From positions 61,690,001 through 61,754,000 of the forward strand of contig OX597814.1 of assembly GCA_951406725.2 (NCBI GenBank): a stretch of DNA of 64,000 nt, written 5' to 3'. The stretch's first letter is position 1. Every line of letters begins with the position of its first letter. Of the stretch, positions 23,161 to 63,849 are shown piece by piece. The notes below the pieces were generated by a model that was not told the origin of the DNA, ran no database searches, and was given only the letters and a program-made list of their open reading frames with translations. The position numbers were made by a program, and so were the translations under genes. The stretch comes from Octopus vulgaris (taxonomy: Eukaryota).

Positions 23161-24011
23161 CTTTATATATTCGTTTTGCAATATTCTTGATGTGAATTTG
23201 TGTGTTGAAACAGATATTGTTGTATTTGAAGATGGTCATGTTGCCAGTTTAGCCAATGAAAACACACGCACTATATTGCTTCTTTGTCTAAATAAAAGTA
23301 AAGAGCTCGCCGGTTCTGTACCAACGCGCCAATCAGGAACACGGGCGCTCGCTCAACAACATAGCAGTTAAAATCTTGTCCACACATAGAAAAGACGCAA
23401 CGCTTAGATAAATTACGGAAGCTACACGCACAATAGAAGATAAACCTAGTCTGAATAGAAAACTAGAATGGGACACTAGCACACACCTCCAACACAACAC
23501 AACCTATGACATAATAAGATCCTATAAACTGATAATAATATGAATATAATACAATACACAGATAGCTAAATGGAATTAAATAACTATATACATAAGCAAA
23601 ATAAACTGAATTAAATTAATTCAAAAGAAGAAAGAAAAAGTAAGTAGATATAAACAAATGAATAAAATTAAAATAAAAGTAAATTAAACAAACGTGTATA
23701 AACAGGGGATACTGATAATGCAGGCACCATACACCCCCCCACACCCTTACTACACATAGACGCACACAGGGATATACGCATGCTCAAATAAAGACACATA
23801 CAATAGGAATACAAAATGACAGATCATTAGTAAGGAGAGACACAAAAAAGAAAGAAGAAAGCAAAAGACCACTGATGAGGTTACAGAAGTGTGACGAAAG
23901 AACTCTGGCCGAAATACAATTAATATGAAATAAAGCTGAAGCAAGGGAACACCAAATATACAGTGCGTGTGTTTTTATTGGTTAAACTGGCAACATTACC
24001 ATCCCCAAATA
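23161..24011 (+). mobile_element. 5'-truncated Penelope-like element with inverted terminal segment
   Basis: 23223-23277 is inverted at 23954-24011; 23358-23471 translates to NIAVKILSTHRKDATLR*ITEATRTIEDKPSLNRKLEW (GIY-YIG C-terminus-like); CTGATGA-GGTTA..TGGCC-GAAA at 23872-23914; starts at (TA)n. Confidence 0.7.
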
Positions 24012-24554
24012 TGCTTTAAAATATCAGCTTGAGAAGTACTGGAACTTTTTCGCCAAATAATGCTGGAAGAAATCTATTCCTCACTGTGAACACGTGCATT
24101 CTTTAAACAGTTAAAACAACAGCGATAAGAACGACGACGACAACAACAACAACACCAGAAACAACAACAGCAGCAACAACAACAACAACAACAACAACAA
24201 CAACAACAACAACAACAACAAAAATAATAGTTTCTTTATTGACCCTAAAATGTTTGCAAAAAGATCGAGGTGTTACAGAACGATACAATGTGGTATTACG
24301 AGAAGGAGCGTTTAAATAGTAAAATAGCAATAGCAGTGAGATTTTAACCATGAATATTTTCCTAAAAGTGGGAAATTTCTGAAGACTACTCGTGTATATT
24401 CTACAAAACCAGTCATCTTGATCGTCGAGGCAAGTGCCTTCTCCTTCAATTGACAGGCGCATGCTCCTTCCTCTGCACCGCATCCAACCCATCAACCTCC
24501 ATAAATACATTTCTTAAATAGTCACCAAGTTTAGCCATGTGACACTATTGGATA

Positions 24555-24818
24555 CTCTTTTACCCTTTTACTCTTTTACCCTTTTACTTGTTTCAGTCAT
24601 TTGACTGCTGCCATGCTGGAGCACCGCCTTTAGTCAAGCAAATCGACCCCAGGACTTATTCTTTGTAAGCCTAGTACTTATTCTGTCGGACTCTTTTGCC
24701 GAACCGCTAAGTTACGGGAACGTAAACACACCAGCATCGGTCCTGGGGTCGATTTGCTCGACTAAAGGCGGTGCTCCAGCATGGCCACAGTCAAATGACT
24801 GAAACAAGTAAAAGAGTA
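24555..24818. mobile_element. Two SINE family A 3' ends joined in inverted orientation
   Basis: 24582-24655 is the reverse complement of 24740-24815. Confidence 0.85.
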
Positions 24819-25109
24819 TATACACTCATTGCCTATTGTTCTATCTTCGATCGCATTGTTTATATAGACGTTTTCATACACACACACACACACACATACA
24901 TGTATTACGTAAACTAAGAGAAAACCTCTGATGGGCAGTATTTCACCTCGTATATACAGCAGTAGAATAATTAGATTTTCAACTGTTGTTTATTCCGAGT
25001 TTGGCATTGACGCGTTTCATAATAACATTTCATTTTAATTGAATGTATCGTTGACGTCTTGCAGCAACTTACAAGTCAGTATAGATTTCATAAAGCCAGA
25101 TCCGTGAGT

Positions 25110-62267: not shown

Positions 62268-63397
62268 GACTCTTAAATATTTTAAATAGAAATCGTATAG
62301 AATAACCGTATGGAGCTAGGTCCATCTTGTTTTTACTAAAAAAGCAAAACTCTAATATATTTTAAATAGATATCTGTGAGCTCTTCCACTGGTGTTCTTT
62401 CTAACTGTACCTGTTTTAGAACACAAAGAATTACATGGTATTTGTACGTTGCCAAACATTTTAATTGACTATATAGTTAATTTAATTTAATCTAATTTTA
62501 ATCTAATTTAATTAACCCACTTAAATCAAATTCTATTCTAAGTTTAATAAATAATACTACTCCCTTAATAATAATACGAGGAATTTTCAATATGATTTTC
62601 ACTATATTTTGAATAAACAATGCCCTCACACCTTTTACTATAGAAATTAATTGACCTCTAGGTATAGACCTAAAGTCTGTCTTACAATGTATAAACATTT
62701 GTATAAACAGTAACAATAACAAATAAATAAATAACCTCCTGTTCAAGTATTGCACTTAAACCTCTTAATGTATTTTCCTCTACTGATAGCCTTTGACCCC
62801 TTTGATACTTTCTTTTGTTCTCTTTATATTCTTATACCTGCTTTTAACTGTAGGATTGGCAGTTAACAGCTGTATGTTGGTCAAAAGTAATGTTCTCTTT
62901 TATAAATCTAGATTCCTGCAACTCTGACCTAGATTTTCTGTCACCACAGAAATAAGCTATTCTTTGTAGGTTGTGTACTTTCACCCCTTCCTCTCATTTA
63001 TCCCATAATGCCCTATTTGGGCGGTTTTTGCTTCACTAACTTTTTTTAGCCAATATGGTCAATCTCTTCTTCCAACATAGTAGTTTTGTGAAATGAACAG
63101 AAGTGTGATCAGCATCTTCTCATATATCAGGAAATTACATCTACATTATTATGGATAAATTCATCGTCTCTGAGTATGAAATATCTCCTCATATCTCCGG
63201 AAATTACACCTGTATTATTATGGATGGATTTACCTTTTCTGTGAAACTAACAAACTTTTTTAAAAACCTTTTATAAAACTGTGCATCATTAGAGAACTTT
63301 TGAAGTCTGCTTACAATCTAACTTTGCTTTTTATAGAACTCTCTTCGATACTTCATGAGTGTAGCTTCACCCCCTAGGATGTTTGGAAAACTCATAT

Positions 63398-63492
63398 GTG
63401 TTTTGGTTGATGAATACGGGACACTTGTATTTGCTGCAATATTTGCAGCTTTTAATAAAGCTGTTCTTCGTATGAAACAATTGTACTGAACA
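63398..63492 (+). ncRNA. Hammerhead motif in the right terminal repeat, with C3->U change
   Basis: TTTGG-TTGATGA(63407-63413)-ATACG..CGTAT-GAAAC(63474)-AATT-GTA-CTGAA. Confidence 0.6.
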
Positions 63493-63849
63493 ACTAATCC
63501 ATTCTTGTTGCTTTTTTCTTGTTTATAATCACCCCCACATTATTTTATGGTTAATACCATATAGATTTCTGGTGCATCTAAGTTCAGTACCGCATTCATG
63601 TGAATTCCTTGGAACTCACTTGAATCTTAATTGTTTTTACTGAATATACATATATATATATATATATATATATATATATATATATATATATATATATATA
63701 AACTTACTTGGAAATGGATGCGTGGCGTTCAATGAAATAATAATATAAATAATATATGTTCCTTTCTACGATGTTCTACCCAATTGATCATATGTATATT
63801 TGTAATGGCTTTTATGTAAGTCTCCTAATTATATATAAAATAAATAATA

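Follow-up and report, generated by a model that had tools for sequence, protein, structure and literature searches.

We examined a 64,000-nucleotide stretch of the Octopus vulgaris genome (contig OX597814.1 of assembly GCA_951406725.2, positions 61,690,001 to 61,754,000; hereafter the window, in whose own coordinates positions are given) for fold-back structures, in which a segment of DNA lies head-to-head with an inverted copy of itself. An initial annotation, made from the sequence alone, had proposed that nine such hairpins look like miniature inverted-repeat transposable elements (MITEs) and are in fact RNA-derived insertions of several families of Penelope-like elements (PLEs) that target (TA)n. 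Inverted-repeat searches of the window recovered all nine at or near where it had placed them, and the one-sided tail it had described is present on one arm in 9/9. We regard it as nearly certain that the fold-backs are PLE insertions, and as probable that they form by twin priming on one RNA during insertion. Each family has two fixed 3' ends, called A and B here, of which B is A plus the tail. The structures are as follows, with the family name used below in parentheses:

58814-63644, + strand: whole unit of an insertion assigned to the Hydra clade of PLEs, with (TA)n flanking both sides; arms 58814-59383/62958-63527, 570 nt, 98.6% identity (Hydra)
57447-57962: fold-back of the 3' end of a young Neptune-type PLE; its left arm ends at B, with a slipped tail, and its right arm at A; arms of the 57497-57948 hairpin 99.6% identical (57.5k)
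23161-24011, + strand: A-ended stub of a Neptune-type GIY-YIG region, with an inverted B-ended arm at 23161-23276 and (TA)n on the left only; arms 23223-23276/23958-24011 (23k)
29580-29947: fold-back of a 358-nt tandem unit without an open reading frame (ORF), nested in the internal TA tract of 28451-31500; arms in 29580-29901, 94% identity, plus tail to 29947 (29.6k)
28451-31500: single fold-back whose tandem, ORF-less unit is ~640 nt long; it runs from an A end at 28451 through a turn at ~29315-29322 to a B end at ~31500; arms in 29171-29519, 74% identity (28.4k)
27835-28426: an old structure formed by a tandem hammerhead unit of ~310 nt, with its tail at ~27835-27872 and an expanded stretch of internal (TA)n at 27873-27924; arms in 27926-28426, 65% identity (27.9k)
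36449-36802: fold-back of a hammerhead family akin to 38.5k, keeping only the GAAA half of the motif; arms 36449-36497/36673-36720, plus tail (36.4k)
38562-38863: very young hairpin, 0% from its family majority; tail 38562-38644, arms in 38645-38857, 97.7% identity; the family has a full hammerhead (38.5k)
37716-39153: fold-back with its B end at 37716 and its A end at 39153, within a mariner-like fragment; arms 37753-37961/38955-39153, 86% identity (37.7k)

All nine are head-to-head inverted, 5'-truncated copies with a tail at one end, the arrangement of the insertion units of endonuclease-positive (EN+) PLEs. The initial annotation needs correction in some respects. It had listed 29143-29555 as a structure of its own; the inverted repeat is real but is the inner turn of the tandem fold-back at 28451-31500, whose internal TA tract houses the 29.6k hairpin and SINEs (short interspersed elements). 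The (TA)n flanks it described are found at both true ends in 6/9 structures, and at one end only in 23k, 27.9k and 37.7k; some apparent flanks are internal expansions, such as the tract left of 27945, which exists but has the tail beyond it. The internal TA tract of 37716-39153 is broken by a CTAG-ended repeat (~38170-38560) and the 38.5k hairpin. The clusters at 27835-31500 and 37716-39153 are both nested, with insertions inside expanded internal TA tracts of earlier ones. One additional fold-back was seen at 54932-55185 (77% identity, microsatellite apex), with related sequence at 31722-31874.

The Hydra element and the smaller families

The insertion at 58814-63644 is, to judge from motifs compared by eye with the supplement alignment of Craig et al. 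(2021; PMC8557442), a broken PLE of the Hydra clade, which these authors define by RWK, DKT in place of DKG, a CxCX5C linker, CxxC near the catalytic Glu and no CCHH. Its parts are:

58382-58403, + strand: flank sequence from which the junction filler was copied, ~430 nt beyond the element
58814-59383, - strand: inverted 5'-truncated arm ending at site A, with an intact hammerhead (core 58934(-))
59384-59400, + strand: filler at the junction, lying within a 22-nt stretch (59381-59402) that matches flank DNA 58382-58403 exactly
59472-61085, + strand: reverse transcriptase (RT) frame with RWK, DKT and YRDD motifs and a premature stop at its end
61341-62267, + strand: Asn-rich spacer, CxCX5C linker and GIY-YIG endonuclease without CCHH, with CxxC before the catalytic Glu
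62958-63527, + strand: sense copy of the arm as far as site A; its hammerhead has T in place of C3
63528-63644, + strand: 117-nt tail between sites A and B

The order of RT followed by a C-terminal GIY-YIG is present, but "near-intact", the initial description, overstates the case: the window ORF lies in several pieces with stops and frameshifts, and its C-terminus is degenerate at the region where the clade's CxH motif follows a conserved Asn; at another genomic locus, L282, the frame from RT to linker is continuous. Nothing in Pfam scored above cut-off for the Hydra RT or endonuclease, so that both are easily overlooked; the nearest named protein matches of the RT are from Octopus (73-84% identity). 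Octopus database proteins (P0002, P0040) contain pieces of this family under host-gene names, and the Asn-rich inserts in the ORF (60900-61850 in the window) are family-wide and reminiscent of Adineta PLEs. The family ends at A = 63527 and B = 63644, each followed by a short TA-rich motif, and in tandem copies at L284 and L287 B joins the body start (59401) directly, so A and B are internal sites of a longer template. By eye, a hairpin shared ahead of sites A and B was not clearly seen. The hammerhead core is intact in 19/20 pattern matches of the family.

Two other structures can be linked by sequence to PLE coding regions. The 57.5k hairpin is the 3' end of a young Neptune-type RT + GIY-YIG element: its arm matches the 3' end of L276 at 98-100% identity, and this copy has both domains, with DKG in the RT, a CxxxCxxC linker (of the CX2-5CxxC form) and CCHH in the GIY-YIG, all Neptune-type features. 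The arm is 99-100% identical to the 40 scored genomic candidates, each arm contains a minimal hammerhead of the U3-A8 variant known from PLEs (PMC4209133), and the apex of the hairpin is (TA)8. Its tail (57447-57496) is rearranged, with a short repeat and a skip that have the look of slippage at initiation. The 23k structure is tied through the GIY-YIG frames of its family, which has a degenerate linker, a full hammerhead and no RT among the copies recovered. In five further families the outer ends are fixed, the inner breakpoints vary and minimal hammerheads of PLE type are present. The window arms diverge from their family majorities by 0 to 12.8%, a spread that fits the continual seeding also proposed.

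Hammerheads were searched with a type I descriptor in place of Rfam; a scan of the window with Rfam gave no hammerhead among the 150 of 204 matches listed, which are hairpin and microsatellite matches below the gathering score. The descriptor found full minimal type I motifs at 58934(-) and 23872(+) and missed a putative long-stem-II hammerhead at 38016(-) in the 37.7k family; partial motifs lie at 27.9k, 36.4k and 29.1k. The 29.6k and 38.5k window copies have none, though each family carries one. The 38.5k and 36.4k families are related (71%), and their full hammerheads sit upstream of the breakpoints of the window copies. In the 29.6k family the 358-nt tandem unit has a U3-A8 core in 18/23 matches, and the window copy ends short of it; we make no claim from breakpoints that seem to cluster near the hammerhead cut in this family, since our queries select for that length. 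An ORF-less tandem unit together with a type I hammerhead, the combination seen in retrozymes, is found in 29.6k, in degenerate form in 27.9k, and not in 28.4k, where a CTGATGA box was found and no GAAA box (half a core).

Two observations on these families stand apart. In 36.4k copies (L292-L304) the B end is often followed by (ATT)n, which is long in L292, L293, L296, L299 and L300 and does not occur at the opposite end; it could be due to reiterative copying at the start site or to later slippage. A variant of the CTAG-ended repeat (L049:1300-1500; also L194, L220, L230 and L242) contains 66 nt of the 29.6k unit that stop at site A.

Fold-backs and their targets in a genome sample

To place the window in its genome we used a random sample of 120 evenly spaced 10-kb stretches on 12 contigs (1.2 Mb), in which 60 tight fold-backs (arms of at least 40 nt, at least 80% identity, spacer of at most 300 nt) were found. 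(TA)n flanks are enriched relative to random positions: (TA)4+ lies within 10 nt of one outer end in 26/60 tight fold-backs as against 6.5% of 12,000 random intervals, and at both outer ends in 1/60. The asymmetric pattern of TA, an 11-130-nt tail and TA again occurs in 18/60 (1.5% of random intervals), and descriptor hammerheads in 8/60 (1.6% of random intervals), with 31 descriptor hits in the sample as a whole and 0 and 0 in two shuffles of it. Most members of the window families in the sample are solo stubs; 11/70 of their matches are head-to-head, compared to 16/597 for four control repeats. A second control, local direct repeats set against the inverted ones, was dropped when it was swamped by tandem arrays.

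Targeting of (TA)n is strong in some families and not universal. (TA)n follows the 3' end of solo copies in 17/20 cases for Hydra, 9/9 for 57.5k and 7/7 for 38.5k, while the 29.6k family is mostly in plain AT-rich DNA, where many copies have a single 12-14-bp duplication that encloses both arms. In five of the six short solo 57.5k copies (TA)n also precedes the truncated 5' end, which argues for insertion into (TA)n that was already there. Nor is the adjacency exclusive when compared with another class of element, because SINE ends adjoin (TA)n too (for two SINE parts, 42 and 27 of 182 and 0 and 77 of 151 ends, in part an internal microsatellite). A SINE-like abundant repeat itself forms tight fold-backs at 24577-24818 in the window, L189:5873-6153 and L242:5351-5674, and 8/182 of its matches in the sample are head-to-head. 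A very abundant repeat (242 matches in 1.2 Mb; window 32542-33132, 43628-43792 and 46817-47049) is tandem in the window with two preferred ends ~70 nt apart, and may be another PLE-style passenger or a composite. No clear signature of strand-biased A-to-G editing was seen in 20 window arms.

Could the hairpins be MITEs, or other DNA transposons with terminal inverted repeats? We consider this highly improbable. Target duplications do occur, and many of the 60 tight fold-backs in the sample have neither (TA)n contact nor a match to the window families, and some of those may be MITEs. In the families studied here, however, length varies freely, breakpoints are variable and the two ends are asymmetric; most members are solo or tandem, only the 11 of 70 noted above being head-to-head; and the arms are PLE 3' ends or have PLE-type hammerheads, with no transposase linked to them. 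For 58.8k (the Hydra element), 57.5k and 23k homology already refutes the MITE reading. Less credible still is an origin in the assembly. Perfect palindromes are a known artefact of long reads, and the 57.5k arms are 99.6% identical, but across the set the arms differ by 0.4-35%, stop at different, element-defined sites and lie within target duplications. Contigs of runs X1, X2 and X4 begin in unique flank and enter the left Hydra end by 23 letters, fewer than the 31 required for bridging. Empty sites were sought over 57100-59500 in four runs; none was among the joints listed, and contigs break at (TA)n.

End pairing and the formation of the fold-backs

The above comparisons place the fold-backs among PLE insertions, but how are the two arms of one insertion made? 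We scored the end pairs of 62 distinct head-to-head structures from six families, after removal of duplicate loci. Fifty-four are A+B, none is A+A, six have one atypical end and two were scored B+B; on re-inspection of the latter, L063 is A+B and L313 has an atypical end. In the random, unselected sample 5/5 fold-backs of these families are A+B, and among solo copies both A and B ends are used. The A arm reaches more than 100 nt further 5' in 14/54 A+B pairs and the B arm in 8/54; in L012 and L046 the B arm is barely more than the tail. Duplications of 12-14 bp enclose both arms of L052, L054, L056, L057, L059, L315, L316, L317 and L327, and one target duplication around both arms indicates that the fold-back is one event. 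The junction filler of the window Hydra element bears on where that event took place: among 328 loci the 22-nt copy of 58382-58403 was found elsewhere only in two that overlap this place, and a filler copied from local flank indicates that the joint was made at this locus. Partner arms are also alike. The window Hydra arms have 10 non-majority letters in common and 8 differences, and in the 29.6k family partner arms differ at a mean of 3.6 sites as against 9.7 for the median other copy (21 pairs).

From these data we infer double priming with end joining of two cDNAs, probably on one RNA. As a whole, the fold-backs are single insertions of 5'-truncated PLEs and of ORF-less follower copies, and are likely to have been twin-primed on one RNA at two fixed internal sites. 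The steps would be as follows: an enzyme of the element would cut both strands of a TA- or AT-rich target; one primer would start at A and the second at B, on the still-free tail; both would be extended 5'-ward over independent distances; and the two cDNA ends would be joined through microhomology, (TA)n or filler copied from nearby DNA. Extension of a single primer would leave a solo A- or B-ended stub, and expansion of internal TA tracts would provide new targets and hence nested clusters. A lizard PLE studied in vitro fits parts of this scheme, in that both strands are cut and extended, two adjacent internal start sites bound the tail and a dimer is predicted (PMC11167929).

A different way to make the second arm is by snap-back, in which a B-primed cDNA turns back to serve as its own template and the product is resolved at A; asymmetric deletions at the palindrome centre would afterwards have blurred the arm lengths. 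It accounts naturally for the A+B pairing and for arm identity, and the palindromic or microhomologous apices and the small overlaps at many junctions agree with it, as do the 11/54 pairs whose turn lies within 10 nt of symmetry. In tandem units, moreover, an A-primed cDNA longer than one unit includes the tail (L052, L063, L317, L327). We nevertheless think it unlikely, though a serious alternative: there are A-long pairs below one unit in length (187-1294 nt: L003, L012, L026, L290, L040, L046, L071, L081, L100) in which the tail cannot derive from the first cDNA, the 4.0-kb L282 is also A-long with only 31 nt of upstream tail, A-long pairs are present even among the 57.5k copies, which are 99-100% identical, and solo A-ended copies indicate that A primes alone. 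A cDNA primed at B cannot, on folding back, yield an A arm longer than the B arm, and one primed at A does not contain the tail; the best fit is therefore a pair of priming events. Another route, in which an antisense transcript primes itself and the palindrome is made ahead of integration, was put forward for this architecture in Adineta (Arkhipova et al. 2013, PMC3846280) and agrees with the palindromes at junctions; it seems to us improbable to a considerably greater degree, as the window junction carries target-flank DNA, so that the joint formed on site, and both outer ends are sense-RNA start sites of the kind mapped in vitro (PMC11167929).

Several points weigh against twin priming on one RNA, or soften the evidence for it. 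Most queries included the tail, so that the 57.5k and 23k sets and the random sample were the only ones in which an A+A pair would have shown up. The 11 near-symmetric pairs look like snap-back products, and central deletions of a palindrome could convert B-long pairs into A-long ones. The partner arm is strictly the nearest copy in 9/21 pairs of 29.6k, 2/4 of 36.4k and 0/18 in three near-uniform families, and with counts this low an origin from the same molecule is not separable from one at the same source locus. Copying one region twice would require strand displacement, and for the lizard PLE in vitro the two strands showed no difference in start site (PMC11167929), so that strict A+B pairing finds no explanation there. 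Finally, neither an ORF nor an autonomous partner with an RT was found for the six families 27.9k, 28.4k, 29.6k, 36.4k, 37.7k and 38.5k; long copies of 38.5k, 37.7k and 23k extended across 7-8.6 kb (7 loci) showed no linked RT.

Relation to known systems and significance

The supposition that such elements were undescribed in cephalopods does not hold, as Craig et al. (PMC8557442) list Hydra-1_Obim and two Octopus Naiad families with a (TA)n preference. Hydra-1_Obim shares with the window family RWK, DKT, CxCX5C, CxxC, the lack of CCHH, a hammerhead, the (TA)n target and a cephalopod host; by-eye comparison with the supplement text indicates that the window family is separate and visibly divergent, with a 4.24-kb unit, an Asn-rich insert, a 1.4-kb 3' region and a 117-nt tail, as opposed to a unit of <3 kb and a tail of 30-40. 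The inverted copy and one-sided tail of EN+ PLE insertions are described there as well, and the insertion unit given in its Fig. 2 legend and in PMC3846280 has the same architecture, junction palindromes and Asn-rich inserts, with target duplications of ~9-10 bp. Beyond the published units we have counted six families, in which 54/62 structures are A+B, either arm can be the longer and most copies are ORF-less.

In L1 twin priming the second target strand also uses the RNA already in place as its template, with a 5' inversion as the result and no duplication of sequence. Here, by comparison, both primers would start close to the 3' end, which is usually duplicated. The closest experimental parallel is the Poseidon element PAc of Anolis, for which Frangieh et al. 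(2024, PMC11167929) report two adjacent RT start sites bounding the tail, cutting and extension of both strands and AT-rich targets, all as in the account given here; their main text does not treat inverted insertions and gives no strand difference in start site. The minimal hammerheads of PLEs and of animal non-LTR (long terminal repeat) retrozymes (Cervera and de la Pena 2014, PMC4209133; bioRxiv 10.64898/2026.07.22.740005) are type I minimal motifs with a palindromic helix III and the U3-A8 variant, as here; the same reports describe opposite-strand pairs 100-700 bp apart and treat tandem ORF-less units as non-autonomous PLE derivatives. The window units differ from retrozymes in that most occurrences comprise one or two copies, with A and B ends as in PLEs.

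What is already published therefore comprises the inverted truncated copy, the one-sided tail, the microsatellite bias, the Asn-rich inserts, the target duplications, the opposite-strand hammerhead pairs, the Octopus Hydra family and the two internal RT start sites. A literature search, mostly of titles and the starts of abstracts and exclusive of subscription papers and of the Frangieh and bioRxiv supplements, gave no paper devoted to this cephalopod system or to PLE twin priming. How PLEs form inverted insertions is stated as open where the cited papers touch on it; what is new here is the A+B count, with either arm the longer, which makes the question of mechanism testable.

The remainder of the window holds other decayed mobile elements (13560-16670, 20526-21450, 48280-49101 and 56358-57390): LINE-like (long interspersed element) RT fragments, an integrase core (Pfam rve) and a mariner fragment (HTH_48). 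One decayed fragment we take to be probably hAT-type.

The A+B rule with either arm longer yields a sharp prediction for the existing in vitro system, and for annotation it means that MITE-like hairpins in this genome are often PLE stubs. A bolder version of double priming, which we put forward tentatively, is that it is ordered: a dimeric enzyme on one RNA would assign A and B to opposite target ends, each inverted insertion would accordingly get exactly one tail, and ORF-less hammerhead units would ride in trans. By extrapolation, tens of thousands of hairpins in the genome would be its product, and these would form a lasting supply of long double-stranded RNA in a lineage that edits its RNA heavily. 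Tight fold-backs occur at about one per 20 kb, ~40% of them with the TA signature, and this density would bear on the stability of palindromes and on the load of double-stranded RNA if the loci are transcribed.

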